A stretch of DNA of 64,000 nucleotides from Candidatus Bipolaricaulota bacterium (GCA_035528115.1 DATKZF010000003.1:22699-86698), one strand, 5' to 3'. Positions 19,237 through 64,000 are shown, numbered from the stretch's first letter. Notes: generated by a model from the letters alone, not told the origin. Made by a program: numbers and translations.

Positions 19237-19260
19237 AAATTCATAAATAAATAAACAAAG

Positions 19261-19394
19261 TTGTCATCTCGACCGCAGTCGTCCGAAGCCGCGGCGAAGG
19301 ATGACGGAGCGGAGAGATCTTTTCCAATTTTATTAAAAAGATTTCTCCATTTCGTTCTCCAGCCTGGCCGAGGGGTCGAAATGACAAAGACTAT
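19261..19394. repeat. MITE-like element family C (TIR ttgtcatctcgacc / ggtcgaaatgacaa)
   Basis: 14-bp terminal inverted repeats; internal gtcgtccgaagccgcggcgaaggatgac and gagagatcttttcc modules shared with copies at 30117, 31338 and 41994. Confidence 0.7.
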
Positions 19395-19400
19395 TATCGC

Positions 19401-20822: not shown

Positions 20823-20882
20823 AGTTACAAATTACATTCGACTAATTAGCTTCCAGGCTGTTGTTACAAATTACATTCGCCC
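20822..20882. repeat. MITE-like family A fragment
   Basis: agttacaaattacattcg ... tgttacaaattacattcgc. Confidence 0.55.
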
Positions 20883-20892
20883 CGCAGGCGCC

Positions 20893-21276
20893 TTAATGCA
20901 AATTCAAAATCCTTCTAAATCTCAATGTTTTTTTCGCAAATAACGCAAGTATTCCCAATTTTAAACCTGTTTGTCCGAGATATCCATGGACTTGCGCAAA
21001 ATCATTGTTCGCAAAACTCTCTCCCCTTTTTATTTCCAAAACAATTTTCTCTTCGATGATGAAATCCGGCACATAACAACCTATTCTTTCGTCTCTATAT
21101 TTGATAGAAATTGTCTTCTGACTGACGCAATTTATATGTGAATCCTTAAACGCTTTTTCCAACGCCCGTTGATAATATTTTTCTTGCAATTGTCCGCCCA
21201 ATTCGGAATGGACATTTTTCAGCGCCCCCACGATTTTAAAACTGAGATATTTATAAATAATTTTACTTTCTTTCAT
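20893..21276 (-). CDS. GxxExxY protein (PD-(D/E)XK-like, rRNA-IVS-associated family)
   Basis: start MKESKIIY with SD; YxxLSFKIVGAL...Y..AL..E...VPDFIIEEKIVLEIK pattern is typical of the GxxExxY family. Confidence 0.6.
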   Translation of the reverse strand: MKESKIIYKYLSFKIVGALKNVHSELGGQLQEKYYQRALEKAFKDSHINCVSQKTISIKYRDERIGCYVPDFIIEEKIVLEIKRGESFANNDFAQVHGYLGQTGLKLGILALFAKKTLRFRRILNLH

Positions 21277-21968: not shown

Positions 21969-22000
21969 TTGACTAAAATTAGATTTTATGCTATTATAAT
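21969..22000 (+). promoter_or_regulatory. sigma70-type promoter TTGACT-17-TATTAT driving the high-GC island
   Basis: ttgact at 21969-21974, 17-nt spacer, tattat(aat) at 21992-22000; lies in AT-rich host-like DNA immediately before the GC jump. Confidence 0.5.
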
Positions 22001-22095
22001 ATGTTATTCTGCGCGAATCAGCCGGACAAAACAAAGCTTTTCGCGACAGAATATTGTTTTTCACGCGGTGGAAACCGCCAAATTAGGAGGGAAGG

Positions 22096-22569
22096 ATGAA
22101 TCTGCTGAACGAGATCACTCGATTCACCTGCAATCTGTTCGACGACGACGACCGCGACCCCGAGTTCTTCGGAATGCACGAGGTCGGGCGGCGCGGCGAC
22201 GCTCTGCCCTTCATCGGGGACGTCGCGCGGCAGATCGCGGACGAGGACGGAGACGGAGACGATGAGTTCGTCTACCGGCCCAACGCCCCGATCGAGGGGC
22301 CGCTTCCCCGCCGGTCGGCCGATCCGCCCGCGGCCAAGCCCATTTTCTGCTCGGTCATCCCTCCCTTCACCAACCGCCCGACGAAGCGGGGCATGTACCA
22401 GCGCACTCGCAGTCTGCCCGCGGACTCGCTCCGCGAGTGCAAACCCCGACGGGACTCGAACTGGAAGGACTCCGGGGCTGAGCGCCAGTTCGTCCGTCAC
22501 ACGGGACGCCGCGGACGGATCATGACCATCCGCGACCCCGCGCTCGTCGACAACGACGCGATCGGTTAG
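22096..22569 (+). CDS. hypothetical protein (high-GC island ORF1, Asp-rich, no signal peptide)
   Basis: 157 aa; AGGAGG 7 nt upstream of ATG; antisense ORFs in this region judged to be GC artefacts. Confidence 0.4.
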   Translation: MNLLNEITRFTCNLFDDDDRDPEFFGMHEVGRRGDALPFIGDVARQIADEDGDGDDEFVYRPNAPIEGPLPRRSADPPAAKPIFCSVIPPFTNRPTKRGMYQRTRSLPADSLRECKPRRDSNWKDSGAERQFVRHTGRRGRIMTIRDPALVDNDAIG

Positions 22570-22717
22570 CCCACCTGTTCTTTCCCACCTTTCGCCCAAC
22601 CTCATTCGTTGGGCTCCAATCCTTGCTTGATATAATCACATAGCGGGCAAAGATCGGAGATTGTTCCGAAACACCCACCATGCTTCCCGCTGAGAGCGGG
22701 AAAAGAGGAGATGCTAG

Positions 22718-25700: not shown

Positions 25701-26719
25701 TGCAAAACGGCAACCAGGAACCGGATGTCTGGCAAACCGCAACCGGTGGCGGCATCCTGGACCTGACCGAAGCAACAAGCACACCCGTCTCATCCTTGCT
25801 CGTGGCCGGCACCTCGAACAACCTGGTTTCCGTGGTCGAATTCGCTTCGACCGGCGAAGCCTTCATCGTCGAGAGAATGCAGGTCTACGATGCCGACGGC
25901 AATGGCTATGATGAGATCGGTGCCGTCAGAGTAAGCTATACGAACAGCCTCGGCGAGACCGAAGCCAAGGCCGCGATCCCGGACATGAACGGGATTGCAA
26001 TTTTCAACAACTTGGACATCTATGTCCCGAAAGATGCGGCCGCGGATGTCCGGATCTTTACGGATCTGAACACGGTCGCGGGTAGCGCGGACAATGGCGA
26101 TTCAATCAGACTCACGGTGGCCGAATCCGCGAACTTCAGAGCGGTCGGACGAGAGTCGGGGGTCGTCGTCATCGACACGGCGGCTGCAGCTGACCCTGAG
26201 GTCAACAGCCACTACGTGTTCGAGTCCGTACCGAGTGTTGCCTTCGCGGTGGACACTCCGTCCGGAAATCTGATCCCGAGCGCCAACACTTTGTTGGCTA
26301 AATTAGCGGTCACCGCTGACGGCGCGAAGGACATCACGTTCGACGCGGCTACCGGCGATATTACTTTCAAGATCAGCTCTTCTTGCGCCGGCACGGCGAC
26401 AGGAGATGTTTACTTGAAAGACGCAGATGGAACCACTTTGGCTACACCCACCGCTATCGCTCCGTGTTCCGCCACCAGCGTTAAGTTCCTTTTCGAAGAT
26501 GTTACCACCGACTGGAGAGTTCCGGCCGGCGAGACCAAGTACTTGTATGTTTGGGGTGATACGTCAATGATGACGTCTCAGGGCGATTCCATCCAGCTCT
26601 GGTTGGATGACGCTTCAAATGCAAACTTCACTTGGAGCATCAACGGAATCGGCACTTACCAACATGCTGACATCCTCTTTAGAGGCGATAAGTATGGCGG
26701 TCTGTTGCTCAAGCCATAG
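22718..26719 (+). CDS. giant lipoprotein with about 10 MopE-type putative metal-binding repeats (CxxxDDDCDGxxDE) and C-terminal beta-rich repeats
   Basis: 1333 aa; lipoprotein signal MKRMIVCLMVVLLAASC; repeated DxDGDGxSPFxGDCDDxxxxxxPxAxExCDGxDNDCDGxxDE units; C-terminal half Thr/Val/Ala-rich tandem modules. Confidence 0.7.
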   Translation: MKRMIVCLMVVLLAASCGNSASTRKVETDAGPALECGEGTIKVDGECRPKDELCNGIDDDGDGVTDEQCVIPPSNVACGAGTILVDGECVPLPNQDYDEDNDGFSPFEGDCNDDDPTINPTATEVCDELDNNCDGQVDEDDPSQDDFCISMNQYNGNYVAVQGTERCHGIAGMICTPLPVELCRQNAEICDNALDDNCDGVVDEGCDPDFDFDKDGFSPFDGDCDDDNRDIHPDAIESCNGLDDDCDGQIDEGYPIQFFLRDADGDGHGDPENMIQAADCLSAPYGYIDWIVDLDNDCDDSDSHVNPAAIEYCNNIDDDCDGATDEDDPDMGIACTAVLSLHDHDVPILGVNLCENGEMLCTPPPLEECQLQTEICGDIYDNNCDGQVDEDCEEDGAPHYCEPVYTNYGILIGYRGCCGASPLTTTHPEAGMLIKTHEYSSVYYYASDGFRYVFPTTLELDSWYSPLDEYGIPVSPNEEICQQVYDVSLLVLASIPMGMKNVTLRPGAFVTGSTTDSSQRYVVDHCATRKEVDPITVLDEIYSSNYGSTAWERTHPVWNVMWGMYTTGQTVTSADNFDWLETYQSATIEEELGISGMCVDQDGDGYSPFAGDCDDGNDSLFPGAQELCDGIDNNCDGETDEDFAEYLGQPCRGYARNGEFLDGYCSEIGTVVCHNNLALRCSSADENSRWTTDYNWSLPEVCGNSLDDNCDGQVDEGCDQPPDGVSFCEVDDDCADAAWGQYCVYSLVLDASFCQACRQDVDPVDMSQWESVGCGGQTPICAWGVQTVPVSDAFPDGYAPFYWCVECVLDTDCTPGFICSQDNFVCEQQAAAATLTVDVAGMPASGNTYVKGTDGVPAVGFIFTAGDSADALVNSVKLTVYLDNNQNGFSDTADVDDTSGAQNVLATVTIYDAGTPTTPLADAKNLTVNASDITVQFDSLNWTVPSGSTKALLVKATLSTTAPLSGDDDDFALTIQESGDVDAEDGNGTAVNVVLQNGNQEPDVWQTATGGGILDLTEATSTPVSSLLVAGTSNNLVSVVEFASTGEAFIVERMQVYDADGNGYDEIGAVRVSYTNSLGETEAKAAIPDMNGIAIFNNLDIYVPKDAAADVRIFTDLNTVAGSADNGDSIRLTVAESANFRAVGRESGVVVIDTAAAADPEVNSHYVFESVPSVAFAVDTPSGNLIPSANTLLAKLAVTADGAKDITFDAATGDITFKISSSCAGTATGDVYLKDADGTTLATPTAIAPCSATSVKFLFEDVTTDWRVPAGETKYLYVWGDTSMMTSQGDSIQLWLDDASNANFTWSINGIGTYQHADILFRGDKYGGLLLKP

Positions 26720-26771
26720 AGCGCCCTTTTCCGCCCAACCGTCCATGACGGTTGAGGCAAGGAGACACGAA

Positions 26772-26808
26772 AAAACGCCTTCCGGATCACTCTGGAAGGC
26801 GTTTCTAA
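26772..26808 (+). terminator. rho-independent terminator (copy 1 of a duplicated terminator)
   Basis: gaaaaaacgccttccggatcactctggaaggcgtttctaatttt; 9-bp stem acgccttcc/ggaaggcgt plus T-run. Confidence 0.7.
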
Positions 26809-26958
26809 TTTTAAAATCACCATTGACATATTCCTCAAACTGTGCAAAAATATGAATTCCGCGGATAATTGCCATTCAAGCCTTGTTTATTTGCTAAAAT
26901 AAGCGGGGCTTGGGTAGTAATTCGTGTTCAACGGCTTTCCAATAGGAGGGAAAAAGCC

Positions 26959-28017
26959 ATGAAACACTTCGGTTGCTTGTTCGCGTGCGTACTGGTTCTG
27001 GGCTGCGGCGACAACGGCAGCAAGCCACAACTGGGCGATGCCCAGGACGTCGCCGTGTTCGATTTCTCGGGCAACGACCTCCAAGAGACGTTCATGCCCG
27101 ACACGTCCGGCGACGTCAGCGCCGCCGAAGTCACGAGCGACGCGACCATCGAGGACGCCGGCGAGGACTCGGCCATCGAGGCCGGTTCCGACCTGCCGAC
27201 GCAAGACATGATCGAAGACGCGCCGGTCGAGCTGTGCGGCAATGGAGCGCTCGATCCGGGCGAGCAGTGCGACGGCGTCCCCGCGGACGACGTCAACTGT
27301 CAGACGCTCGGCTTCTACGCCGGGCACCTGTCCTGCGCGGACTGTTCGTTCGACACCAGCCAGTGCTCGAACGAAGTGCCCCCGACCTGCGGGGACGGCA
27401 ACGTGGACGCGGGAGAGGACTGCGATGGCGACAACCTCGCGGGATCCTACTGCACCTCGCTCGGATGGGAATTCACGGGCGGTTCGCTCGCCTGCCTCGA
27501 CTGCGCCTTCGACGCCAGCGGCTGCACTCCCCAGTGCGGCAACGGCGTCTGCGAGCCGGAAGAGTCCTACGACTCATGTCCGGACGACTGTCCGCAACCA
27601 TGCCTGGAGGCGCTCGTCATGGCCTTCGCGGCCGACGGTCCGCAGAACCTGGTCATGAACGTGAATGCGCACGTGGCCAGAATCAGCTTGTCCGCCATCG
27701 GCGAGAACGCGGTCGTGGACACGTTGACGTTCCGCGTCGCGGTCCAGATCGCCACGCCGGACAGCGACGTGGAGACCTGGCGTCTCAAGACGGAGACCAC
27801 GCTCGTGATCGCCGACTACCTGGCCGATCTCTCGGGCGATGAGAACGGCTTAGTGATCTTCAACATCAACAACCCGCTGACAATCACTCCCGGCGCGCCG
27901 AGGACGCTGGACATCTTCGTCAACACGGCCGAGATGGACGCGGCAACCGACACCCTTCAGCTGTGGCTCGTAACGGGCTGCGGCGAAGAGGTGGAAGGTC
28001 CGTTGCTGATCAAGTAA
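26959..28017 (+). CDS. lipoprotein with myxo-type cysteine-rich repeats (CGNGxxDxGExCDG) and a C-terminal domain shared with the giant protein
   Basis: 353 aa from ATG 26959 (AGGAGG RBS); signal MKHFGCLFACVLVLGC; CGNGALDPGEQCDG, CGDGNVDAGEDCDGDN and CGNGVCEPEE repeats; C-terminal TLQLWL motif also present in the 22718 protein. Confidence 0.65.
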   Translation: MKHFGCLFACVLVLGCGDNGSKPQLGDAQDVAVFDFSGNDLQETFMPDTSGDVSAAEVTSDATIEDAGEDSAIEAGSDLPTQDMIEDAPVELCGNGALDPGEQCDGVPADDVNCQTLGFYAGHLSCADCSFDTSQCSNEVPPTCGDGNVDAGEDCDGDNLAGSYCTSLGWEFTGGSLACLDCAFDASGCTPQCGNGVCEPEESYDSCPDDCPQPCLEALVMAFAADGPQNLVMNVNAHVARISLSAIGENAVVDTLTFRVAVQIATPDSDVETWRLKTETTLVIADYLADLSGDENGLVIFNINNPLTITPGAPRTLDIFVNTAEMDAATDTLQLWLVTGCGEEVEGPLLIK

Positions 28018-37878: not shown

Positions 37879-38775
37879 ATGTACAAACAAATAGACTCCA
37901 ATAAAAGAAAAAGTTTTTTTCTGGTAACCATCTTCATTATCATTGTGTTATTGTTGGGCGCGATTTTCGGATATTTGACCGGATACTTTTTCGAATTCGT
38001 CTTTTTGGCTATTGTCATTTCGCTGGTCATGACGCTGGTCAGCTATTTTCAAGGAGATAAAATCGCGCTCGCTTCCGCCGGTGCGGTCGGGCCGATAGCC
38101 GAATCGGAGAATAAATACGTTTATCGATTGGTGCAAAATTTATGCATCACCGCCGGCCTGCCCATGCCGAAAATTTATCTGATCAATGACCCGGCGCCCA
38201 ACGCTTTTGCCACGGGCAGAAAACCTGAGATGGCTTCGATCGCCTTGACCACGGGCCTGATTGAAAAGCTGGAAAACGAAGAACTCGAAGGCGTCATCGC
38301 CCATGAATTGTCGCACATAAAAAATTACGATATCAGACTGATGATGATGGTGCTGATTCTGGTCGGCACGGTGGCGCTCATGGCCAATTGGTTTTTCAGA
38401 TTCTCCGCTTTCGGCGGACGCTCGCGAGATCGAAGCGGCCAAGCAGGAGGAATTTTGATTATCGTCGGCATCGTATTATCTCTTTTATCTCCTTTGATCG
38501 CCGAATTGATCAAATTGGCCATTTCTAGAAAAAGAGAATTTTTGGCTGACGCAGACGGCGCGCTTTTGACTCGCTATCCTGAAGGCTTGGCCAAAGCTCT
38601 TGAAAAAATCTCAGCTTACGACAGACCCATGGCCAAAGCCAGCAACGCCTCGGCCCATCTTTACATCGCCAATCCGTTTTTCGGGCAAAAAAAATTTTTG
38701 ACCGGCTTATTTTCCACTCATCCGCCGATTGAAAAAAGAATCGGCGAACTCAGAGGCATGGAAAGAAATTTATAA
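37879..38775 (+). CDS. htpX: zinc metalloprotease HtpX (M48 family)
   Basis: HELSH motif (IAHELSHIKNYD); 4 TM segments; start set at MYKQ (37879) because the upstream ATG lies in a family D repeat. Confidence 0.8.
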   Translation: MYKQIDSNKRKSFFLVTIFIIIVLLLGAIFGYLTGYFFEFVFLAIVISLVMTLVSYFQGDKIALASAGAVGPIAESENKYVYRLVQNLCITAGLPMPKIYLINDPAPNAFATGRKPEMASIALTTGLIEKLENEELEGVIAHELSHIKNYDIRLMMMVLILVGTVALMANWFFRFSAFGGRSRDRSGQAGGILIIVGIVLSLLSPLIAELIKLAISRKREFLADADGALLTRYPEGLAKALEKISAYDRPMAKASNASAHLYIANPFFGQKKFLTGLFSTHPPIEKRIGELRGMERNL

Positions 38776-41207
38776 TGATTATGTACAGCGACAAATTCGA
38801 CAACAACGTAAAAAAGGCCATTTATAAAGCCTTTAATATAGCCAAGGCAACGGGTTGCGAGCAAGTCTTGCCCGCGCACCTGCTTTTGGCGTTGATCAAG
38901 CAAAAAGGCACCATTGCCAATGAACTGCTCAGTCCGAAATCGCTGGAAAGCAAAATTTTGGACACCGTTTCCAAACACAAATCCTCGGAAACTTTGAGAA
39001 AATTGCCGACACTGTCTTTATCCACGGAAGAAATCGTTTTGCGCGCCGCAAAAACCGCTTTCGAAAACAAACATCCGTTCATCGGCACCGAACATTTGTT
39101 TCATGCCATCATTTCGGACGAGAGCAATGATTTGAAAGAAATCTTTTCCAATAAAATAAACCGCGCCAATATCAAAACCCAGCTTAAAGCCCGCTTTAGC
39201 GGTATTTCCAGATTTCCGGAAATACGCGATATGTTTAATTTTTTCCAGGCGGACATGCCGACAGACATTATCGATAACCCGGCCGGCGACAAAAAACAAA
39301 ATCTGCTGGAATTTTTCGCCGTTGATTTGACCGATCCCAAAAATCAAAAAAAATTCATGCCGCTCATCGGCAGAGAAAAAGAAATCAGCCAACTGATTCA
39401 AATTTTGTGCCGAAAGAATAAAAATAATCCGCTGCTGCTCGGCGAGCCGGGCGTGGGCAAAACCGCGCTGGTCGAAGGCCTGGCGCAAAGAATTCTCGAA
39501 GGCAAAACACCTGACATTTTGGCTGATAAAAAAATTATGGCTTTGGATTTGGGTTCCTTGGTCGCCGGCACCATGTACCGCGGCGATTTCGAATCTCGCG
39601 TCAAACAAATTCTGGAAGAAATAAAATCGGATCCGAAAATAATTTTATTCATCGATGAAATCCACGCCATCACCGGCGCGGGCTCGGCCAGCGGCGCGCT
39701 GGACGCGGCCAATCTTTTCAAACCTCTGCTCGCTCGAGGCGAACTCCGATGCATCGGCGCGACCACCGATCAAGAATACAAAAAAACCATCAGCCAGGAC
39801 GCCGCCCTGGCCAGAAGATTTCAACCGTTGTCGCTCGGCGAACCGACCGGCGAAGAAACCTTTGAAATATTGCAAGGATTGAAAGAATGTTATGAAGACT
39901 TTCACGAAATAAAAATCAGCGACCAAGCCTTGCTGGCCGCGATTGACTTGTCTTCAAAATACAATCCGGAAAGATTCCAGCCTGACAAATCTCTGGATTT
40001 GATCGATGAGGCGTCGGCCATGCTGAAAATAGAAAATCCCGCGGCCAACGAGAAAATCAAAAAAACCAAAAACCTGCAAAAACAAATCGAAATTTTGCGC
40101 GGCCGCAAAGAAAAAGCGGTGCTGGAAGAAAATTACCACGAAGCCATTAACATCAGGGAACAAATACGCAAGCTCAAAAAAAACATCGAGGCTGAAAACG
40201 GGCAAAACCCGGACAAAAAATCTCTGCCCCTGCTTGAAGCGAGCGATATTCAAAAAGTTTTGGCGCAAAAACTAAACATTGATTTATCTCAAATCAGCCT
40301 GACCCAAAGCGGAAACCTGGCCGGTCTAAATGAAAAAATATCCAATATTGTCATTGGCCAAAATGGCATTATCGAAAAAGTCGTAAAAACCCTTAAAAAA
40401 TCATACACCGGACTCAATGCCGGCAAACGTCCGCTGGCTTCTTTTATCTTTGCCGGACCGAGCGGTTGCGGCAAAACCTATTTGGCCGAAGCGCTGTCAA
40501 ACTCCCTGTTCGCGGGCAGAAATAATTTAATTCGCCTGGACATGTCCGAATTCTCGGAACAATTCAATATTTCCAAACTGATCGGCGCTCCGGCGGGTTA
40601 CGTGGGCTACCAAGAAGAAAATAAATTCACGGATCAGGTCAAGAAAAAACCGCACAGCATTATTTTGTTGGATGAAGTGGAAAAAGCGCACAAAAGCGTT
40701 TACAATTTATTTCTGCAAATCTTGGACAGAGGGCAATTGACTGACGCGGCCGGAAAAATAATATCGTTTCGGCAAGCGATAATAATTTTCACCACCAATC
40801 TCGGAAATTCCAACGAGCGAATAAAAATCGGCTTCGGCGGCGACGGCAAGGAAGACAGCGGAGACAATGTCATTTCCGAAATCAAAAAATTCTTTTTGCC
40901 GGAATTCATAAATCGCTTGGATGAAATTTTAGTTTTTAACAGCTTGGACTTAAATAATTTGGAAAAAATAGCTACAATGGAATTAGCAAAGATAAAAGAC
41001 CGGCTTGAGGCCGCCGGCAAAAAAATGACATTCTCCGATGAAATCGCCGCCACCCTGGCCAAGCAATGCGAAAAGAAAAACGCGAGATCTCTGCTGAAAA
41101 TAATCGAAGAAAAAATCATTGAACCCCTGACGGAAAAAATAATCAGCTCCGCCGATAATTCTCTCATTGAAATAACTCTCGACGGCCAAAATATAAACAT
41201 AAAATAA
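38775..41207 (+). CDS. clpC: ATP-dependent Clp protease ATP-binding subunit ClpC/ClpA-like
   Basis: 810 aa; duplicated Clp_N repeats; Walker A GEPGVGKTALVEGLA and GPSGCGKTYLAEALS; sensor/arginine-finger motifs. Confidence 0.85.
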   Translation: MIMYSDKFDNNVKKAIYKAFNIAKATGCEQVLPAHLLLALIKQKGTIANELLSPKSLESKILDTVSKHKSSETLRKLPTLSLSTEEIVLRAAKTAFENKHPFIGTEHLFHAIISDESNDLKEIFSNKINRANIKTQLKARFSGISRFPEIRDMFNFFQADMPTDIIDNPAGDKKQNLLEFFAVDLTDPKNQKKFMPLIGREKEISQLIQILCRKNKNNPLLLGEPGVGKTALVEGLAQRILEGKTPDILADKKIMALDLGSLVAGTMYRGDFESRVKQILEEIKSDPKIILFIDEIHAITGAGSASGALDAANLFKPLLARGELRCIGATTDQEYKKTISQDAALARRFQPLSLGEPTGEETFEILQGLKECYEDFHEIKISDQALLAAIDLSSKYNPERFQPDKSLDLIDEASAMLKIENPAANEKIKKTKNLQKQIEILRGRKEKAVLEENYHEAINIREQIRKLKKNIEAENGQNPDKKSLPLLEASDIQKVLAQKLNIDLSQISLTQSGNLAGLNEKISNIVIGQNGIIEKVVKTLKKSYTGLNAGKRPLASFIFAGPSGCGKTYLAEALSNSLFAGRNNLIRLDMSEFSEQFNISKLIGAPAGYVGYQEENKFTDQVKKKPHSIILLDEVEKAHKSVYNLFLQILDRGQLTDAAGKIISFRQAIIIFTTNLGNSNERIKIGFGGDGKEDSGDNVISEIKKFFLPEFINRLDEILVFNSLDLNNLEKIATMELAKIKDRLEAAGKKMTFSDEIAATLAKQCEKKNARSLLKIIEEKIIEPLTEKIISSADNSLIEITLDGQNINIK

Positions 41208-41870
41208 ATGACTCCGATCAATCAAGCCGCGGCGGCCGATGACAATCAAAGACAGGATGTCAACGCGACTGAAAATACCGATGTCAATAACGAACCCGCG
41301 CCGAAAAGAGGCGGGCTGGCTTATAGTGAACAAAAAGCCGCGCCAAGCAGCGCTCCGGCTCCGGATCGAGCGGCTGACGAGCTGACCATGGCCAGGCGAT
41401 TGAAACGGCGAAAGATGAAAGACAAAGTCAGGAGAGCAAGGAGCGTCGCCGGAGGCGGCGCCAAACTCGCGGGCAAAGGCATGAAAGTCGCGGGCAAAGG
41501 CATGAAAGTCGCTGGCAAAGGCATAAAGGCGGGGGGACAAGCCGTTGGCGCGACGGGCAGCGCCCTGTCATCAACCGGAATCGGCGCGATTGTCGGCGTG
41601 CCTTTGCAAATAGCGGGCGGCGCCATGTCCTTGGGAGGCTCGGCGGTCTCCGCGGGCGGCTCGGGATTGGGCAAACTCGGAAAAATGGCAAGCCCGGGCA
41701 AAGCGCGGCCGGAAGAACCGGCTCAAAAAGTCGTCAAAGCCGCAAAAAAAGCGATTTCCACCTTTGTAAAAATATTCGTGCCGCTCGTTTGCTGCAATCC
41801 TTTCTGTCTGCTTATTTTACTGATTTTATTCATAGTTATAATGATCGCGCACCAGCTTGGCATGTTGTGA
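41208..41870 (+). CDS. Gly/Ala-rich tail-anchored hypothetical protein, translationally coupled to clpC
   Basis: 220 aa; start overlaps the clpC stop (taaATG); three 21-bp tandem repeats encoding AGKGMKV; C-terminal TM helix. Confidence 0.5.
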   Translation: MTPINQAAAADDNQRQDVNATENTDVNNEPAPKRGGLAYSEQKAAPSSAPAPDRAADELTMARRLKRRKMKDKVRRARSVAGGGAKLAGKGMKVAGKGMKVAGKGIKAGGQAVGATGSALSSTGIGAIVGVPLQIAGGAMSLGGSAVSAGGSGLGKLGKMASPGKARPEEPAQKVVKAAKKAISTFVKIFVPLVCCNPFCLLILLILFIVIMIAHQLGML

Positions 41871-42309: not shown

Positions 42310-43581
42310 ATGAATTTATCAAATCTGCCCGTAAAAAAAATCGGTTTGGCCGCACTTATTTTAATCATCGCAGCCGGCGCCGGTTATGGAATTTATTATT
42401 TATTTTTCAGACAAGCCGCCCCGGTGATTACCGAAAATGAGGCAACCAATGAAGCGGCGGGCGGTTTGCCCACGGGTCCGGCCGGAGGCGTGACCAATCA
42501 AATCGTCAATGGCGTTCCGGTCAATGAAGCTTTGCCCGGAATTCCCGGAATTCCCAAAACCATCACCAAAGTCCCGGCTCCGACCGGTATTTCCGCCATC
42601 GCTGCGGGCGGCGTCACCAAAGTCGCCACCAATTTCACGGGCGCGGTGGCCGCGGTCAATATGCCGGCAGGACAAAACAATCCTCTCTTTTACAATCCTC
42701 AGGATGGTTATTTTTACGAAATCAGCTCCTTTGGCACGACCACTAAAAAGTCCAACACTTCTTATCCCAACGCGCAAAACATCGCCTGGGCGTCAAACGG
42801 AGACAAGGCTATTTTGGAATTTCCGGACGGCTCGAACATCTTGTACGATTTTAAATTGCAAAAGCAGACTTCCCTGCCCAAGTCGTGGCAAGATTTTCAG
42901 TTCAACGATCAAGGCTCGAAAATCGCTTTCAAAGATATAAATGTCAATGAAAATTACAACTGGCTGGCTATCGCCGATCCGGACGGTTCCAAACAAAAAT
43001 ATTTGGAAACATTGGGAGACCGCGGCAGCCGAGTGGAAATCAATTGGTCGCCGACAAGCAACACGGTCGCCAATTATTACAAATCCGAAAACGCGTCCTC
43101 GACCACGATTTACATGATCGGACAAAACGAAGAAAATTTCAGAGCGATCGATGCCAAGGGCCAATTCGTGCAATCCAAGTGGGTGCCTGACGGCAAGAGA
43201 ATGGTTTACAGCGCCTATAGCGCGGAAACGGACAACAAACCCAATCTTTATATCGTTGACGCCGTCGGCGACAGTGTGGGCTACAACCACAATTCTCTCA
43301 ATCTGAACACCTGGATCGATAAATGCGTCTTCCAAGGAGAAAGCATCATGTACTGCGCCGTGCCCAAATCTCTGCCCAGCGACGCGGGTTTTCAGCCGAC
43401 AATCGCGGACACCATACCGGACTACATATACAAAATAGATTTAAATACGGGCTCAAAGGTCATTATCGCCGAACCGGAATACAGCTACACGATTCAAAAC
43501 ATGGAAATTTCTCCGGACGGCAAATATCTTTACTTCACGGACAAAGCTTTGGGGCAGCTGCATAATATTCAATTGAAATAA
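42310..43581 (+). CDS. secreted/membrane-anchored hypothetical protein with beta-propeller-like (TolB/WD40-like) C-terminal region
   Basis: 423 aa; N-terminal TM (LAALILIIAAGAGYGIYYLFF); SPDGKYLYFTD-type motifs. Confidence 0.45.
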   Translation: MNLSNLPVKKIGLAALILIIAAGAGYGIYYLFFRQAAPVITENEATNEAAGGLPTGPAGGVTNQIVNGVPVNEALPGIPGIPKTITKVPAPTGISAIAAGGVTKVATNFTGAVAAVNMPAGQNNPLFYNPQDGYFYEISSFGTTTKKSNTSYPNAQNIAWASNGDKAILEFPDGSNILYDFKLQKQTSLPKSWQDFQFNDQGSKIAFKDINVNENYNWLAIADPDGSKQKYLETLGDRGSRVEINWSPTSNTVANYYKSENASSTTIYMIGQNEENFRAIDAKGQFVQSKWVPDGKRMVYSAYSAETDNKPNLYIVDAVGDSVGYNHNSLNLNTWIDKCVFQGESIMYCAVPKSLPSDAGFQPTIADTIPDYIYKIDLNTGSKVIIAEPEYSYTIQNMEISPDGKYLYFTDKALGQLHNIQLK

Positions 43582-43584: not shown

Positions 43585-45333
43585 ATGAAAAAAATCGCGC
43601 TTTTCGCTTTTTGCATTTTTTTCGTTTTATCAATCAGGCCGGCTGACGCGGCCAATACTTTTTGCGATTGCCAAAACAGAACCGGCGACTGCCAAATACT
43701 TTGCAGCGGCTATCAAGATTCGGATAAAATTTGCGAATGCGAAGTCGGACAATCCTTTACCGCTATAGATCAAACGGTCTGCGACACCCAATGCGCGGCT
43801 CAAGCCGCGGCCGCCGCGAGCGCGAATTTACCCAAAGTCAATTCCATTTTCTGCGATTGCAACACTCAAATTTCGCAAACAAACGATCAATGTAAAACAC
43901 AATGTCCCAATTACAATAATCAAAAAATCTGCATGTGCGCAATCGGCGCCAAACCGACAACGATGAACGCGGATGCGACCGCCGCCGTCTGCCAAACAGA
44001 TTGCCAAACCGCGGCGGCCGGGCAAACGGAAACCTCTCCGCCCGCCGAAACCTCGGTTGAAGCCGGACAACCGGCTCCGGCCACCTCGCCGGCCATCAAA
44101 CCCAAATTATACGTGCCCATTCCCGATCTCCATTTTTCCGATGTTGTCTTGGCCACCACTGGCGGCGGCGCGGCCAGCCTGCCTTGGATTTCCGAATATG
44201 TCATTGCCGTTTACAAATACGCCATGGGCATCGGTTCTATTTTGGGCATTATTATGATCATGATCGCCGGGGTCTTGTACCTGACCTCAGCCGGCAATCC
44301 TCAAAGAGTCGGACAGGCCAAAGATTATATTGTCGGCTCAGTGATCGGCTTGACCGTTTTGTTTTCTTCGTATTTGATTTTGAATTTTATCAATCCTCAA
44401 TTAACAAAATTAGGCAGTCTCCAATTTCAAACCGTTTCTTTGGAACAACTTGAGATAGAATTCCAAGACGCGGAAGCCGTGGGCAGAGAGGATGTTAATG
44501 CCGGAGATTACGCCCCCATTCCCGGAGCCGCGCCTTCGGCGCCCGCTCCCCGCCCGTCAGGAGAAGTATTGCCTGTAGTTGCGCTAGATCCAGACAATTG
44601 TAAACCCAGTAAACCCAGTGGGATTGGCAACGCATCCTTGCTTTCAAAATATCAGGAAATGAATTGTTTAAGCCTTGGCCAAAGAAGTTTAGCTAACATA
44701 ACCAGAGTATACATTCATGAGGGTTCAACCGCCGAAAAAAATGTAAAATCTTGGATTAATAAATACAAAAAAGAAGGAAAAACCATAAGCAGCCACTACA
44801 CGATCAACCGCGACGGAACAATCTATCAAATGTTAGGTGAAGAAAAAGTCGCGGCTCATGTTCCATGTAGAAAAGTTTTTAATGAAAGAACCGGAAAAAA
44901 AGATAAATGTGACCCAAATGGAATACCCAACAAGAACTCCATTGGAATTGATTTGGAAGTCAATGTCCGAACAGCATACTATTGGAGCAAAATCAATACT
45001 TGCTTGGGATTGGTGAAAGATAAAAAGATTAAAGGGGTTGAAAACACAAAGGAAGCCGCGATCGAATTCTGCACACCCACATATACCCAAGCCCAGTATG
45101 ATTCTCTGAAAAAATTATTGCAGAGCATTGCCGGCAGAACAGGCTATTCTTATGACATAAGCCACACTTTCGCTCATTGCGAATGGGGCGGGCACACCGA
45201 TCCTCGAAACTTTGACTGGTCAAAACTGGGTCAAAGCACTGAGACGCATCAAGACAGAAATCCGAGCTATTGTAAATATTTTCCCATTTATGAAGAGAGG
45301 GTCAAAGAACTTGCTGATAAACTTTTTCAATAA
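43585..45333 (+). CDS. secreted Cys-rich protein with T4SS-pilin-like TM hairpin and C-terminal N-acetylmuramoyl-L-alanine amidase (Amidase_2/PGRP) domain
   Basis: 582 aa; signal peptide; more than 20 Cys in the N-terminal domain; pilin-like AMGIGSILGIIMIMIAGVLYLTSAGNPQRVGQAK motif; amidase motifs HYTINRDGTIYQ, IGIDLE and FAHCEWGGHTDPRNF. Confidence 0.6.
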   Translation: MKKIALFAFCIFFVLSIRPADAANTFCDCQNRTGDCQILCSGYQDSDKICECEVGQSFTAIDQTVCDTQCAAQAAAAASANLPKVNSIFCDCNTQISQTNDQCKTQCPNYNNQKICMCAIGAKPTTMNADATAAVCQTDCQTAAAGQTETSPPAETSVEAGQPAPATSPAIKPKLYVPIPDLHFSDVVLATTGGGAASLPWISEYVIAVYKYAMGIGSILGIIMIMIAGVLYLTSAGNPQRVGQAKDYIVGSVIGLTVLFSSYLILNFINPQLTKLGSLQFQTVSLEQLEIEFQDAEAVGREDVNAGDYAPIPGAAPSAPAPRPSGEVLPVVALDPDNCKPSKPSGIGNASLLSKYQEMNCLSLGQRSLANITRVYIHEGSTAEKNVKSWINKYKKEGKTISSHYTINRDGTIYQMLGEEKVAAHVPCRKVFNERTGKKDKCDPNGIPNKNSIGIDLEVNVRTAYYWSKINTCLGLVKDKKIKGVENTKEAAIEFCTPTYTQAQYDSLKKLLQSIAGRTGYSYDISHTFAHCEWGGHTDPRNFDWSKLGQSTETHQDRNPSYCKYFPIYEERVKELADKLFQ

Positions 45334-45336
45334 ATT

Positions 45337-47148
45337 ATGAAAAAAATATTTATTTACTTCTTCTTCAGCTTGATTTTTTTAACACTGAGCGCCCAGGATT
45401 CGTTCGGGGCTTCGGTTTTTTGCGATTGCGCCGCTCAAAGCGGTTGCGCGCTAACATGCCAAGGGCAAAGTACGGCTGCGAAAATATGCCAGTGCGCCAA
45501 TGGAAATGATTATAGCGTTTCCAGCCAAAGCGAGTGCGTTAATCAATGCAATATAACTAATTCAGAAATCCTATCATATTGCGAATGCCCTGTCAGCGGC
45601 GAATGCCCAACTTTATGTTCAAATACGCCCGCTGATTCAAAGATATGCAAATGCGACAACGGCAATACAATATCAGTCGCAAACTCGACTCAATGCGACA
45701 CTCAATGCGCGGCTCAAGCCGCGGCCGCCGCGAGCGCGAATTTGCCCACGGTCAATTCCATTTTTTGCGATTGCAACACTCAAATTTCGCAAACAAACGA
45801 TCAATGCAAAACTCAATGCCCCAATTACAATAATCAAAAAATCTGCATGTGCGGACTTGGCGCCAAACCGAAAACGATGAATGCCGAAGCGACCCCCGCC
45901 GTCTGCCAAACCGATTGCCAAGCCGCTGCGCTGGCTGTAACTTCCGCTCCGGCCGAGACCGCGGCCGAGCCCGGACAACCGGCTCCGGCCACCTCGCCGG
46001 CCATCAAACCAAAACTTACCGTGCCCATTCCGGATCTCCATTTTTCCGATGTCGTTTTGGCCACCGCGGGCGGCGGCGCGGCCAGCCTGCCTTGGATTTC
46101 CGAATATGTCATCGCGGTTTACAAATACGCCATGGGTATCGGCTCGATTTTGGCCGTGATCATGATCATGATCGCCGGAATTTTATACCTGACCTCGGCC
46201 GGCAATCCGCAAAGAATCGGCCAGGCCAAAGGCTACATCATCGGCTCGATCACGGGCCTGACAATTTTATTCAGTTCGTATTTGCTTTTGAATTTGATCA
46301 ATCCGGCATTGACGCGATTGGGACCTATTGGGATTGGAGTTGTTGAGGCGGAAAGGCTGGCATGGGAAGAATCTTTCGCGATTGCGGAGGCAGCAGCGAT
46401 AACGCCACCGAATGTTGAACAAACAGATCCTGAAAAATTAATACCAACCGAAAGAGCCGGTTGCACGGATACAGGTAAGGCAAGCAAGCCATCCGGATTT
46501 AGCATGGCGAATACTTCTCTTCTAGGTAAACTCGACTGCAACGCGACACGCCAAAGGCAAGTAAGCAGCATAAAATATATCGTATTGCACGACGGCGGCG
46601 GCGCCGCGTTCAATGTGAGTTTTTGGACAAAAAGATGTCAAGAAAAAGGCTATCAGAGTTGCCCGGCTTCTCACTACACAATCAATAGAAGCGGGGCGAT
46701 ATATCAAACATTGGGAGAAGAAAAAGTCGCCTACCACGCTCAAGCGTATAATTCCGCCGGCATCGGCATAGATTTGGAAAATGATTTGCCATCGAAATTC
46801 ATTTACAGTAGGGTAGATGATTGCCTGACAGCCTGCAAAGACGGCAAATATCCGTGCAAAAAAGCGACCGCGAACAATAAACAATACGCTATCAGCAAGT
46901 GCACGCCAGAAAAATCAGTGTCGCAATACGTGTCCCTGGCATTGCTTATACAAGACATCAGGACGCGCGCCCCAGGAGCTAAGGTAGTGGCTCACTGCGA
47001 AGGAGGAGTTCATAGCGATCCGCGCAATTTTAATTGGAGATTGATTGGGATTGATCCCGCGGCGCATCCAGACACAGCCCATTGTAAATTTTATCCCACT
47101 TACTCAGACAGGGTAAAATCCTTGGCAGATAAAATTTTTGGCCCATAA
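45337..47148 (+). CDS. paralogous secreted Cys-rich / pilin-like TM / Amidase_2 protein
   Basis: 603 aa; N-terminal and pilin-like segments nearly identical at DNA level to the 43585 gene; diverged amidase domain (SHYTINRSGAIYQ, VAHCEGGVHSDPRNF). Confidence 0.6.
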   Translation: MKKIFIYFFFSLIFLTLSAQDSFGASVFCDCAAQSGCALTCQGQSTAAKICQCANGNDYSVSSQSECVNQCNITNSEILSYCECPVSGECPTLCSNTPADSKICKCDNGNTISVANSTQCDTQCAAQAAAAASANLPTVNSIFCDCNTQISQTNDQCKTQCPNYNNQKICMCGLGAKPKTMNAEATPAVCQTDCQAAALAVTSAPAETAAEPGQPAPATSPAIKPKLTVPIPDLHFSDVVLATAGGGAASLPWISEYVIAVYKYAMGIGSILAVIMIMIAGILYLTSAGNPQRIGQAKGYIIGSITGLTILFSSYLLLNLINPALTRLGPIGIGVVEAERLAWEESFAIAEAAAITPPNVEQTDPEKLIPTERAGCTDTGKASKPSGFSMANTSLLGKLDCNATRQRQVSSIKYIVLHDGGGAAFNVSFWTKRCQEKGYQSCPASHYTINRSGAIYQTLGEEKVAYHAQAYNSAGIGIDLENDLPSKFIYSRVDDCLTACKDGKYPCKKATANNKQYAISKCTPEKSVSQYVSLALLIQDIRTRAPGAKVVAHCEGGVHSDPRNFNWRLIGIDPAAHPDTAHCKFYPTYSDRVKSLADKIFGP

Positions 47149-47151: not shown

Positions 47152-48453
47152 ATGCTATTCACCTGCTCCAAATGCGACGCTCAATTGCCCAAATGGTCCG
47201 GACGCTGTTCCGAGTGCCAAGCTTGGGGCACGATTGAAAAAGCCGCCGGCAACGGGCAGAAGACGGCATTTAAAAGCGACTCCAAAATAATTTCGCTTGA
47301 TGAAATAGACAATCTAAGGCTGGAGCGGCTGAAAACCAAGGTAAAAGAATTCGATGAATTTTTAGGAGGGGGGCTGGTCGAAGGCAGCCTTCTTTTAATC
47401 GGCGGCGAGCCCGGCATCGGCAAATCCACGGTCGCCTTGCAGCTGCTCGGCAAATTCGGCCAAGATTCGCTTTATATCAGCGGCGAAGAATCCGCTCAGC
47501 AGATCAAACTGCGGGCTCAAAGAATCGGCGAAAGTAATTTGAAAATTCTCAACACCAACTCGCTCGAAGACATTCTTTATCATTTGCAAACTTCAAAACC
47601 AAAAATCGCCATCATTGATTCGATTCAAACGATTTATTCTTCGCAAATAGAAGGCGAGGCGGGCAATATCGCGCAAATCAAAACCATTGCGGTCAAACTG
47701 CTCGAGCTGGCCAAAAAACAAAACATCGCTTTGATCATTATCGGCCACATCACCAAAGACGGCTCCATTGCCGGGCCGAAAACGCTGGAGCATTTGGTGG
47801 ACGCGGTTTTTTATCTGGAAGGCGAAAAAAATTCGGATTTGAGAATTTTGAGATCAATAAAAAACAGGTTCGGCTCGACCAATGAACTGATTATTTTCGA
47901 AATGACCGAGGCCGGCCTTCAAATCGTGAGCAACCCGTCTAAATTATTTCTCTCGCCCACGCCGCTTGACGTGGCCGGCACAGTGACCGGAGCGGTCATC
48001 GAAGGTTCGAGATGTTTTTTGGTGGAAGTGCAAGCCTTGATCAATCAGACGGTCTTCGGGTATCCGCAAAGAAAATCAAGCGGCTATGATTTGAATCGGT
48101 TTCAACTTCTTTTGGCTGTGCTGGGAAAACGAGCGAATTTGAATTTCAATACGCAAGACGCGCATCTTAATGTCACGGGCGGATTCAAAATAAAAGAACC
48201 CGCGCTTGACCTGGCCGTGGCCATGGCTTGCGCCTCGGCCCTCACCAATAAGACGCTCGGCCCGAAAACATTGGTTTTCGGCGAAGTGGGCCTGGCCGGA
48301 GAAATTCGAGCCGTGAAACAGGCTGAAAAACGTCTAAAAGAAGGCGAAAAATTGGGGTTTGAGGCGGCTATTGTCCCTTTTGGCGTCAAATACACGGGCA
48401 ACATGAAAATCAGCCAAATAAAGACAATTTCAGAAGCGATTCAATTACTTTAA
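47152..48453 (+). CDS. radA: DNA repair protein RadA/Sms
   Basis: 433 aa; N-terminal C4 zinc finger; Walker A GGEPGIGKST; KNRFG motif; Lon-like C-terminus. Confidence 0.9.
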   Translation: MLFTCSKCDAQLPKWSGRCSECQAWGTIEKAAGNGQKTAFKSDSKIISLDEIDNLRLERLKTKVKEFDEFLGGGLVEGSLLLIGGEPGIGKSTVALQLLGKFGQDSLYISGEESAQQIKLRAQRIGESNLKILNTNSLEDILYHLQTSKPKIAIIDSIQTIYSSQIEGEAGNIAQIKTIAVKLLELAKKQNIALIIIGHITKDGSIAGPKTLEHLVDAVFYLEGEKNSDLRILRSIKNRFGSTNELIIFEMTEAGLQIVSNPSKLFLSPTPLDVAGTVTGAVIEGSRCFLVEVQALINQTVFGYPQRKSSGYDLNRFQLLLAVLGKRANLNFNTQDAHLNVTGGFKIKEPALDLAVAMACASALTNKTLGPKTLVFGEVGLAGEIRAVKQAEKRLKEGEKLGFEAAIVPFGVKYTGNMKISQIKTISEAIQLL

Positions 48454-62446: not shown

Positions 62447-63169
62447 TCAACTGCCGTGCGCCAGCGCTAAAGCGCGCACTTCCTTGACCCCCGCGGCCTT
62501 TAACGACTTGGCCGCTTCGTTCATTGTTTGACCGGTGGTGAACACATCGTCAAATAAAAAAACTTTTTCAATCGCCGCTCCTTCGCGGGCGGAAAAAGCT
62601 TCCTTTATATTCTCAAAACGCTCGCTTTTAGTCAAATTGGCTTGATGAGCGGTGTTTTTTATCCGACAAAGCAAATCCGGACGAAAATTCATGTGCAACG
62701 CTTCGGCCACCTTTCGAGCGATCAATTCGGATTGATTAAATCCTCTTTCCAAAAATCTTTTTCGGTAAAGCGGAATCGGTATAATGATCTGATCGAACAG
62801 CGACGGAGAAATGTTTGATGACACAACGGCGTCAACGAACAATTTGGACAAATCAGCGGCCGCCTCCTCGACATAATCGAATTTGAGCAGTCTAATCAAT
62901 TCTTTGATCGCCCCATCGTATTTACCCATCACGAAAACGCCGTCCAAAAAAAATTCATTGCCGCATAATGGACAAAGTCGATTATCCGGCTTCGCCGGGC
63001 GGCCGCAAACAACGCATTGGTTTTCATTCGAAAAATCAATGGTTTTAAAACATTTTTTACACAAAAAAGATCCCTCCTCTTTGCAAACAACGCATTCTTT
63101 CGGAAAAACCAAATCCCAGAGGAGGGAGAATATTTTTTTAAACGGATTTTTATTGCCAATAAGCCGCAT
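62447..63169 (-). CDS. comF: ComF family protein (phosphoribosyltransferase domain)
   Basis: 240 aa; N-terminal Cys-rich zinc-finger pairs; PRTase motif VFLFDDVFTTGQT. Confidence 0.75.
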   Translation of the reverse strand: MRLIGNKNPFKKIFSLLWDLVFPKECVVCKEEGSFLCKKCFKTIDFSNENQCVVCGRPAKPDNRLCPLCGNEFFLDGVFVMGKYDGAIKELIRLLKFDYVEEAAADLSKLFVDAVVSSNISPSLFDQIIIPIPLYRKRFLERGFNQSELIARKVAEALHMNFRPDLLCRIKNTAHQANLTKSERFENIKEAFSAREGAAIEKVFLFDDVFTTGQTMNEAAKSLKAAGVKEVRALALAHGS

Positions 63170-63743
63170 TGATTAACCATTCGCCGTTAACTTTCACGAA
63201 GGCCAATTTTAAATCTTGGTTAAAAACGCGAATTTCGCCATCCTTGGTTTCTTTTCTCTGAGTGGAGACGATAATAACCGCGCTGCTATCGCTTTGACTT
63301 TCAATTTTGGCTATCGGCGCGATGGTGGTTACTCCGTAATATACCTCGTCGGCAGCGTATTGAGCGGACAACTTTTTTTTCTGAGCGACCAACCAATCCT
63401 GCATTTGAGGCGTTGACAGCGCGGCCAAATCGTCCAAATTGGAAAATGAGCCTTGATTGGAAAAGCTGCCGAATCTTTCCGCGAATATTTTCGCGATATT
63501 CTGAGCCTGTTCAATGCCTTTTTCCTCAGCGGTCATCTCAGGCAAATCAAATGCCGGCCTATTTTCCACGGGCACGATCTGCTCTCTCGCGGGCGGCTTG
63601 GTTTCATCGATCACGCCCGGCTCGACAGGTTCTTGCCCCGCGTTTCTGAAGTATAAGAAGCCGAAAATTATGGCGCCGATGATTAAAACCGCGATAACTA
63701 CTAGAATTATAATTTTGGTTCCGATTGAATATTTTTCCATCAT
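63150..63743 (-). CDS. hypothetical membrane-anchored protein
   Basis: 197 aa; N-terminal TM (IIILVVIAVLIIGAIIFGFLYF). Confidence 0.4.
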   Translation of the reverse strand: MMEKYSIGTKIIILVVIAVLIIGAIIFGFLYFRNAGQEPVEPGVIDETKPPAREQIVPVENRPAFDLPEMTAEEKGIEQAQNIAKIFAERFGSFSNQGSFSNLDDLAALSTPQMQDWLVAQKKKLSAQYAADEVYYGVTTIAPIAKIESQSDSSAVIIVSTQRKETKDGEIRVFNQDLKLAFVKVNGEWLINAAYWQ

Positions 63744-63758: not shown

Positions 63759-64000
63759 TTAACTCGCTTTGGGTTTTAGTTGTTCCGGCGATTGAGTCTC
63801 GCCGCCGCGCCTTGAAGCCAATTCCTCTTCCATTTCCTTTCTCATCCTCTCTATTTCCAAAAGTTGCTGGGGATCGGAAGTGATCAATTGGTCTTCCATG
63901 CCCGAAGCCACCACCTTAATGGCCGCGTGCCGGTCGCCGGCGAAAAAGATGCCTTCGCCCACTCCGCCTTCAAGCAATAAATATCTTTCGCCTTCGGTCA
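63759..64000 (-). CDS. partial CDS (3' part only; continues beyond the window)
   Basis: open reverse frame from stop 63759 to the window edge. Confidence 0.3.
   Translation of the reverse strand, partial: TEGERYLLLEGGVGEGIFFAGDRHAAIKVVASGMEDQLITSDPQQLLEIERMRKEMEEELASRRGGETQSPEQLKPKAS

Follow-up and report, generated by a model that had tools for sequence, protein, structure and literature searches.

Predicted peptidoglycan amidases on a VirB2-type membrane hairpin in a conserved clpC–radA neighbourhood of Patescibacteria

VirB2-like pilins of the PF18895 family, as described in Southlakia epibionticum and TM7x (PMC10633639, PMC12102498), are small, stand-alone proteins encoded inside a type IV secretion system (T4SS) cluster, and pilus formation is unproven even for them. 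In Patescibacteria their genes often form divergent tandem arrays (PMC12102498), and in Southlakia, the sole genetically tractable species, the T4SS and the VirB2-like pilins are essential for epibiotic growth (PMC10633639, PMC12857230). Whether monoderm Patescibacteria build pili, and what the pilin-like proteins do, is unsettled in the field (PMC10633639, PMC12857230). A survey of ~3,000 genomes found that most Patescibacteria with VirB2 are without a VirB1-type wall hydrolase (PMC12102498). Here we describe two adjacent genes, g1 and g2, which join a hairpin of the VirB2 type to an Amidase_2 domain in a single polypeptide. They lie in a 64,000 nt stretch of DNA (hereafter the window) from a metagenome-assembled genome (MAG) deposited as Candidatus Bipolaricaulota bacterium (GCA_035528115.1, DATKZF010000003.1:22699-86698).

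Like the VirB2-like pilins, g1 and g2 have a signal peptide and two hydrophobic helices that form a hairpin around a short, basic loop, and like the VirB2 arrays they are tandem, sequence-divergent paralogs. The genes virB4 and prgI are within ~15 genes of the pair. Unlike the pilins, they carry the hairpin in the middle of a 580–600 aa protein, with ~150–200 aa of Cys-rich sequence before it and ~300 aa of enzyme after it, they have an extra conserved motif (PxLxIxIPGLxFS) before helix 1, and they are encoded in a clpC–radA block. At 582 and 603 aa, with big folded domains on either side of the hairpin, neither protein has the form of a stand-alone pilin (~70–120 aa when mature).

The order signal peptide, Cys-rich domain, T4SS-pilin-type hairpin and Amidase_2 domain had been proposed in a first-pass annotation of the window, and is borne out by Pfam searches and by an AlphaFold2 (AF2) model of g1, built on a 44-sequence family alignment (mean predicted local distance difference test score, pLDDT, 80.9). 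The T4SS_pilin hidden Markov model (HMM; PF18895) scores 37.0 bits in g1 and 37.5 bits in g2 against a cut-off of 26.6, and Amidase_2 (PF01510) reaches 58.9 bits in g1 and 51.3 bits in g2 (cut-off 26). The NCBIfam model for Mbov_0395 pilin-like conjugal transfer proteins gave 24.6 bits, which is under its cut-off of 40, and the similarity of both proteins to AmpD in NCBIfam is sub-threshold. The pilin-like motif SAGNPQR(V/I)GQAK is found in g1 and g2, as are the amidase motifs quoted in that annotation (HYTINRDGTIYQ and HYTINRSGAIYQ; AHCEWGGH and AHCEGGVH). Judged from sequence and model, g1 and g2 are very probably catalytically competent amidases of the AmpD/AmiD type that a pilin-type hairpin presents on the outer side of the membrane, alongside a disulfide-rich domain.

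The amidase domain is modelled as the alpha-beta fold of T7 lysozyme and peptidoglycan recognition proteins (PGRPs), with pLDDT > 90. A single-sequence search of the PDB sequences gave no match, and a family profile was needed; AmpD was then found at E = 2e-16, and AmiD and AmpDh2 at ~1e-13. These, with AmpDh3, belong to the best PDB profile matches (E 2e-16 to 1e-13) and share the His-His-Asp zinc triad and an acidic catalytic residue within a GI(E/D)L motif. In the profile alignment, H531, D539, H537 and D456 of g1 correspond to H154, D164, K162 and E116 of AmpD, and H378, H531 and D539 are invariant across 44 family members. A His/His/Cys zinc site had been predicted; the site is intact, but the third ligand is an Asp (D539 in g1, D561 in g2), as in AmpD and AmiD, not the Cys beside the second His. 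That residue (C532) is nearly invariant in the family together with C563, C473 and C496, so that it is probably a disulfide partner. AmpD carries an 'HC' pair as well, and its Cys is not a zinc ligand.

There are also clear differences from these enzymes. AmpD is cytoplasmic, and AmiD and AmpDh2, which are envelope-anchored too, are outer-membrane lipoproteins of diderms. What sets g1 and g2 apart are predicted disulfides, an insert that contains Cys, a helix at the C-terminus, and a His where AmpD has Lys162. The Gram-positive autolysins and phage endolysins with Amidase_2 domains (LytA, Atl-AmiA, XlyA, LysCS and T7 lysozyme) are soluble enzymes that attach to the wall by means of choline-binding, SH3b or LysM-type repeats, whereas g1 and g2 are predicted to be integral membrane proteins, with a Cys-rich domain that has no detectable relative or structural analog among the listed PDB matches (fold comparison of the model). 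Membrane-tethered, extracytoplasmic peptidoglycan hydrolases are also found among the VirB1-like proteins of Gram-positive T4SSs (PrgK of pCF10, TraG of pIP501, CD419 and TrsG). These are often multi-domain, and the SLT and NlpC/P60 domains seen in relatives of g1 and g2 (below) parallel their SLT+CHAP. In g1 and g2, however, the catalytic domain is Amidase_2 only, not SLT, CHAP or LytM; the anchor is a pilin-type hairpin downstream of a signal peptide that is cleaved off, where those hydrolases have a single transmembrane (TM) helix at the N-terminus; and the genes lie outside a T4SS operon.

The N-terminal domains are built from a repeated 8-Cys module with the consensus C-x-C...C-x3-C...C-x-C...C-x3-C, present in two copies in g1 and three in g2, and each module is modelled as a beta-alpha-beta-beta-alpha unit (pLDDT 75–89). 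This disulfide-rich domain is probably a binding domain. The hairpin module of g1 begins with a PKLxVPIPDLxFS motif and a strand, and continues with helix 200–233, the loop SAGNP, helix 239–269 and a further strand; both helices have pLDDT > 90, and hydropathy places TM segments at 206–239 and 248–271. The short basic loop that joins the two hydrophobic helices reads SAGNPQRVGQAK. Eight positions of the hairpin module (P173, P180, Y210, G229, G255, L266, N270 and P271) are kept in the 44 family members. Fold comparison gave no specific match of the hairpin to solved VirB2/TraA pilins, which is uninformative for a helical hairpin.

From the order of signal peptide, first TM helix, basic loop and second TM helix, we infer that the N-domain and the C-domain are both extracytoplasmic. 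The even Cys counts in both outer domains, the gene for a DsbA/Thioredoxin_4 protein next door in many relatives, and the plain secreted form of the related amidase in Myxococcota all agree with this topology. Low-confidence linkers (pLDDT < 50) at aa 147–159 and 297–333 fall in Pro/Ala-rich, disordered tethers of ~26 and ~47 residues, which at 3.5 Å per residue would limit the reach of the two domains to an estimated ~9 and ~16 nm from the membrane.

The family is far broader than this pair. An exhaustive HMMER search of 1.84 billion cluster representatives returned 221 proteins at E ≤ 1e-30, dozens of them covering both hairpin and amidase; a word-indexed homolog search recovered three proteins only. 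Among the top 92 matches, 83 have Amidase_2 and 60 have T4SS_pilin (E ≤ 1e-3), the latter with a best E of 1e-27. The conserved core of ~125 residues comprises the PxLxIxIPGLxFS motif, a strand, the hairpin and another strand, with the amidase module next. N-terminal regions vary, being absent in some members and in others consisting of a region with 6–30 Cys, an Exo_endo_phos domain, or a hydrolase-like region with a GxSxG motif. Across relatives, the same hairpin also carries C39_2, VanY/M15, SLT, SLT+GDSL, NlpC/P60 or Exo_endo_phos domains.

In a scan of GTDB species representatives with a profile from a 12-sequence alignment, the fusion was restricted to MAGs of Patescibacteria (labelled Magasanikbacteria, Falkowbacteria, Uhrbacteria, Parcubacteria or 'Patescibacteria group') and to bins that bear a wrong Gammaproteobacteria label. 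Outside Patescibacteria, only the amidase domain finds matches, in Myxococcota, Nitrospirota, Bdellovibrionota and others, and no relatives were found in IMG/VR viral contigs. One such hairpin-free, secreted homolog, from a member of the Polyangiaceae (L020, ~9600–10591), has the same Cys pattern and an HCE...HGDPRAFDW motif, and its gene is directly downstream of an SLT-like gene. The NCBI label 'Candidatus Bipolaricaulota' of the source MAG is probably wrong, as gene content, the ~0.76-Mb contig, closest relatives and locus organisation point to ABY1-class Patescibacteria. Several close relatives carry the NCBI label 'uncultured Gammaproteobacteria', which appears to be wrong.

The neighbourhood is conserved. 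In all 20 related loci, from Magasanik-, Falkow- and Uhrbacteria relatives, the genes run in the order clpC, a variable gene, the β-propeller gene, a DsbA-like gene where present, the hairpin-amidase gene, a second hairpin gene where present, radA and recG; flanks are missing on short contigs. The propeller gene is directly upstream of the hairpin-amidase gene or of the DsbA-like gene that precedes it, and a DsbA/Thioredoxin_4 gene is directly upstream of the hairpin-amidase ortholog in many relatives. The window's propeller protein matches PD40 (30 bits, cut-off 20.9) and has an N-terminal hydrophobic anchor. It had been described as a secreted β-propeller; the propeller holds, but the N-terminal TM anchor looks uncleaved, and the protein is therefore considered membrane-bound, not secreted. 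The second hairpin slot differs in content from genome to genome (Table 1), and where SLT and GDSL domains are paired, de-O-acetylation followed by glycan cleavage is suggested.

Related gene pairs also occur elsewhere. In P0096 and P0100, 3–5 tandem T4SS_pilin hairpins are followed by SLT within single polypeptides (L065, 1361–3217; L066, 589–2427), and both genes adjoin a homolog of the window's propeller gene (24% identity; E 7e-24 and 7e-27). L065 also has an adjacent hairpin-NlpC/P60 gene, and the site is near jag, yidC, rnpA and dnaA. Since such pairs of hairpin-hydrolase and propeller homolog are found away from the clpC–radA locus too, a membrane propeller plus hairpin-anchored peptidoglycan hydrolases is a recurrent module across differing genomic settings. 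The position of radA directly 3′ of g2, as first annotated, carries no functional message in our view, because the clpC...radA adjacency resembles the clpC–radA operon of Firmicutes; it reflects a conserved clpC...radA block, not a functional link.

The g1 and g2 proteins are 54% identical overall, and the identity is very unevenly spread. A block of ~0.6 kb (gene-conversion tract in Table 1) has 85–98% nucleotide identity (~90% over the block) and a sharp 5′ onset; within it, nt 43780–44016 and 45694–45930 are 92% identical, and nt 44014–44313 and 45922–46221 are 85% identical. These stretches had been called DNA-identical. The similarity is real and far above chance, but the longest exact runs are just 34–44 nt. 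Synonymous (dS) and nonsynonymous (dN) divergence, estimated by the Nei-Gojobori method, differ in their pattern: dS is 0.49 in the tract, while the flanks are saturated (proportion of synonymous differences, pS, 0.72–0.98; dS > 2.4), and dN/dS is 0.15–0.23 in every segment (0.18 in the tract). Gene conversion is thus upheld for a central tract and not, as first proposed, for the N-terminal two thirds, since only the last Cys module, the linker and the hairpin are covered, and the first module or modules lie outside.

Comparison with other genomes gives the history of the remaining parts. The g2 amidase is 71% identical to P0004, the sole hairpin-amidase (in L004) of a Patescibacteria MAG; RadA of this MAG and RadA of the window share 83% identity. 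The g1 amidase is 52% identical to P0005 and 51% identical to the second gene of L003. Between g1 and g2, the amidase domains are 39–43% identical, the hairpins 79–86% (50–71% to the same relatives), and the N-domains 71% (~30% to relatives). Because each amidase is closer to another genome's gene than to its neighbour, the pair comprises two old amidase lineages whose middle was homogenised by gene conversion of intermediate age. A recent duplication followed by diversification of the catalytic domain, as originally suggested, is contradicted by the closer amidase relatives elsewhere (71% and 52%, against 39% between neighbours), and is ruled out by the domain-wise identities and the saturated synonymous sites of the flanks.

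Features of the locus are listed in Table 1. The intergenic gaps between the propeller gene and g1, g1 and g2, and g2 and radA are 3 nt each, and all four genes are on the + strand, which fits the operon arrangement first annotated. A scan for promoters and terminators inside this operon gave no signal above shuffled background. The g1 protein is identical to database entry P0001, annotated just as 'N-acetylmuramoyl-L-alanine amidase'.

Table 1. Positions of the hairpin-amidase genes, their parts and their neighbours in the window, followed by the content of the second hairpin slot in the window and in related loci (locus coordinates).
Feature	Position (nt)	Strand	Description
clpC, upstream end of conserved block	38775-41207	+	Pfam Clp_N/AAA/AAA_2
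Propeller gene	42310-43581	+	423 aa; PD40/Tricorn-like; directly upstream of g1
g1, hairpin-anchored amidase, type A amidase lineage	43585-45333	+	582 aa; Pfam T4SS_pilin + Amidase_2
g1 Sec signal peptide, aa 1-22 (...RPADA|A)	43585-43650	+	Sequence and hydropathy; inferred cleavage site
g1 disulfide-rich N-domain	43651-44022	+	Two 8-Cys modules, 16 Cys; regex module survey
Gene-conversion tract, g1 copy	43765-44390	+	Nucleotide identity; dS
g1 hairpin module, aa 173-292	44101-44460	+	PF18895 at aa 208-269; AF2
g1 amidase module, aa 340-582	44602-45330	+	8 Cys; zinc ligands H378 (44716), H531 (45175), D539 (45199); catalytic acid D456 (44950)
g2, hairpin-anchored amidase, type B amidase lineage	45337-47148	+	603 aa; Pfam T4SS_pilin + Amidase_2
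g2 Cys modules	45409-45930	+	Three 8-Cys modules, 24 Cys; regex module survey
Gene-conversion tract, g2 copy	45685-46300	+	Nucleotide identity; dS
g2 hairpin module	46009-46368	+	PF18895 at aa 260-321
g2 amidase	46468-47145	+	H418, H553, D561 and D479, counterparts of the g1 triad and acid
radA, downstream end of conserved block	47152-48453	+	Pfam AAA_25/ChlI/Zn-ribbon
comF	62447-63169	-	Edge of T4SS cluster
197-aa gene	63150-63743	-	Edge of T4SS cluster
virB4, 3′ end	63759-64000	-	Edge of T4SS cluster; remainder beyond window
Second slot, window			Second amidase
Second slot, L003 (RadA 81% identical)	7277-9994		Peptidase_C39_2
Second slot, L004			No second gene
Second slot, L067	12208-14550		VanY/M15
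Second slot, L014	3861-5249		VanY/M15
Second slot, L005	1959-3803		SLT + GDSL esterase
Second slot, L018	4776-6500		SLT + GDSL esterase
Second slot, L016	3342-5045		GDSL esterase only; gene cut off at contig end

Between clpC and the propeller gene, the window encodes a Gly/Ala/Lys-rich protein of 220 aa (41208–41870, + strand), with a KGMKVAG repeat in three copies and a hydrophobic C-terminal tail with a CC motif. It had no match in a Pfam search, and its conservation in L003 and L004 is limited to the final ~45 residues; in L002 the product of this slot is 739 aa long. Further upstream, the region 22000–28000 has a GC content of 58–61% (genome ~44%) and may be of foreign origin. It includes an open reading frame (ORF; 22718–26719, + strand) for a predicted lipoprotein of 1333 aa (signal ...LAASC) with many Cu-binding_MopE-type CxxxDDDCDGxxDE repeats. 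On the − strand at 16900–21000, two 23S_rRNA_IVP (PF05635) genes and one gene each of the PDDEXK_3 and Phage_holin_4_2 families lie among gatC and gatA.

A T4SS cluster begins at the right end of the window, 16.6 kb (~15 genes) from g2 and on the opposite strand. Over the window edge and the next 9 kb, comF is followed by a 197-aa gene, then by virB4 and a TraC-like gene, and lastly by prgI and three large genes. The proteins of 325, 490 and 913 aa encoded in the cluster have no Pfam match, and a 935-aa LTD-domain protein follows them. In the part inspected (window edge and L064, 1–10000), no recognisable relaxase, coupling protein, pilin or hydrolase was found, and a search of the window and the 20 kb next to it with the hairpin HMM gave no additional copies; the T4SS-related inspection covered ~85 kb, and the genome measures at least 0.76 Mb. 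The first two small ORFs of the cluster were considered as pilin candidates and rejected, as both are without a TM hairpin.

The reading that we favour, tentatively and at somewhat under even chances, is that g1 and g2 are membrane-tethered hydrolases acting on the wall of the cell that makes them, with the hairpin as an anchor. The proteins would be exported via Sec and lose their signal peptide; the PF18895 hairpin of the VirB2/T4SS-pilin type would then be embedded in the cytoplasmic membrane so that its short, positively charged loop faces inwards. The Cys-rich N-domain and the zinc-dependent N-acetylmuramoyl-L-alanine amidase of the AmpD/AmiD type would both be outside, on flexible Pro/Ala-rich tethers. 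There, the amidase would sever peptide stems from the glycan strands of peptidoglycan near the producer's membrane, possibly for growth, for separation of daughter cells, or for opening local gaps for envelope-spanning machines. The hairpin would serve as a two-sided membrane anchor rather than a polymerising pilin. More widely, the genes belong to an envelope module that is conserved in ABY1-type Patescibacteria and placed between clpC and radA, with a TM-anchored propeller, often a DsbA-like oxidoreductase, and two hairpin-hydrolase slots, one holding a constant hairpin-amidase and the other a variable hairpin-hydrolase.

The substrate, the own-wall target and the anchor-only role are what we infer from several lines of evidence. 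The limited reach of the tethered domains (~9–16 nm from the producer's membrane) points to its own wall as the target. Tethering, purifying selection (dN/dS ~0.2) and a fixed synteny with housekeeping genes favour action on the own envelope, and the DsbA and propeller partners and the reuse of the hairpin for many enzymes support it. Several observations weigh on the other side. To our knowledge, the hairpin family is otherwise known from T4SS contexts only, and a T4SS cluster without a recognisable pilin or wall hydrolase is just 16.6 kb away. Predatory Myxococcota and Bdellovibrionota have enzymes of the amidase subfamily too, in plain secreted form. Among genomes with RadA > 80% identical, the content of the second hydrolase slot and the N-domains changes fast, as is more usual for interaction genes than for housekeeping autolysins.

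The first alternative, which we consider unlikely, takes up the T4SS connection. It makes g1 and g2 a functional fusion of VirB2 and VirB1, in which the hairpin docks the enzyme at the VirB4/PrgI/VirB6 machinery or at a pilus base, and peptidoglycan is cut precisely at the site of T4SS assembly. PF18895 is above threshold in both proteins, virB4, prgI and the TraC-like gene lie 16.6 kb from the pair here, and the order recG...comF-virB4 is repeated in L007, with virB4 ~9 kb off. In the part inspected, the cluster has no recognisable stand-alone pilin or VirB1-like hydrolase. ABY1-class T4SS loci commonly include comF, recG and radA, and most Patescibacteria with VirB2 are without VirB1 (PMC12102498). 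Relatives that fuse 3–5 hairpins to SLT, the canonical VirB1 domain, and pair this with a hairpin-NlpC/P60 gene mirror the SLT+CHAP hydrolases of Gram-positive T4SSs. Against these points, the genes were never within a T4SS operon in the loci examined, virB4 was absent within 10 kb of the module in L010, L013, L015, L067 and L068, and it is the propeller gene and DsbA, rather than T4SS genes, that form the close and conserved company of the pair. The absence of a specific structural match to solved VirB2/TraA pilins may point the same way, but says little for a helical hairpin.

A role directed at a host, the one put forward in the first-pass annotation, is distinctly unlikely, and is kept in view because the hydrolase cargo and the hypervariable N-domains turn over so fast among close relatives. 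Here the Cys-rich domain would bind a host surface and the amidase would digest host peptidoglycan in the contact zone, for attachment, entry of material or scavenging of wall components; for delivery, the hairpin might be extracted into a pilus-like fibre of the T4SS. The resemblance of the tandem divergent paralogs to the variable VirB2 arrays of Patescibacteria, an amidase subfamily shared with secreted enzymes of predatory bacteria, and the need for T4SS and pilins in the epibiotic growth of Southlakia would all be in keeping with it. However, a membrane-embedded enzyme on tethers of ≤ ~16 nm, as estimated from the AF2 linkers, should not by itself be able to cross its own wall to a host sacculus. 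Purifying selection on all segments and a fixed chromosomal position among core genes also speak against it, and in general domains of 150 and 300 residues at the ends of a pilin would hinder helical packing.

A more radical form, which we rate as very unlikely, has the nearby VirB4 machinery extract g1 and g2 from the membrane and incorporate them as working pilins into a T4SS fibre or at its tip. Such a pilus, of the conjugative type but made by a monoderm, with a changeable kit of hydrolases (amidase, SLT, NlpC/P60, VanY and C39) and Cys-rich binding domains, would bore into the host wall. No other recognisable pilin was found in the ~85 kb inspected. It is highly improbable that the proteins are non-catalytic, PGRP-like sensors in which Amidase_2 binds muropeptides and the hairpin or the propeller passes on a signal: in all 44 members, zinc ligands and catalytic acid are unchanged, as in active amidases, and there is no cytoplasmic signalling domain, the cytoplasmic loop being only ~5–15 residues long. 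A remnant prophage lysis cassette, in which a holin-like hairpin is fused to an endolysin, is hardly credible, as the neighbours are housekeeping genes with no phage genes around the pair, the PHROGs matches cover the amidase domain only and none falls on the hairpin, the signal peptide, N-out/C-out topology and large N-domain are unlike holins, and a phage origin is effectively refuted by the chromosomal synteny kept in 20 loci together with the scan of viral contigs.

The components of the module are already known, namely Amidase_2, PF18895 and gene conversion between tandem paralogs, and databases list both Pfam domains. A literature search, PMC12102498 included, found no description of a fusion between the hairpin and an enzyme, and the database names of family proteins are only 'amidase', 'AmpD' or 'hypothetical'. 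What appears to be new is a conserved family and module not described in the literature searched, in which the hairpin carries at least six kinds of wall hydrolase and has a propeller partner.

Dozens of sequence clusters have the same hairpin in the centre of proteins with outer peptidoglycan hydrolase domains, and their genes always have that of a homologous membrane β-propeller at their side. Two ideas arise. The wall-opening activity that is missing from most VirB2 genomes may be found in fusions with pilin-like hairpins. PF18895 hairpins may also serve more generally as two-sided membrane anchors and, if this is true, the reading of 'pilin arrays' changes. The module thereby bears on the role of VirB2-like proteins in monoderm Patescibacteria, which make up a large share of bacterial diversity.

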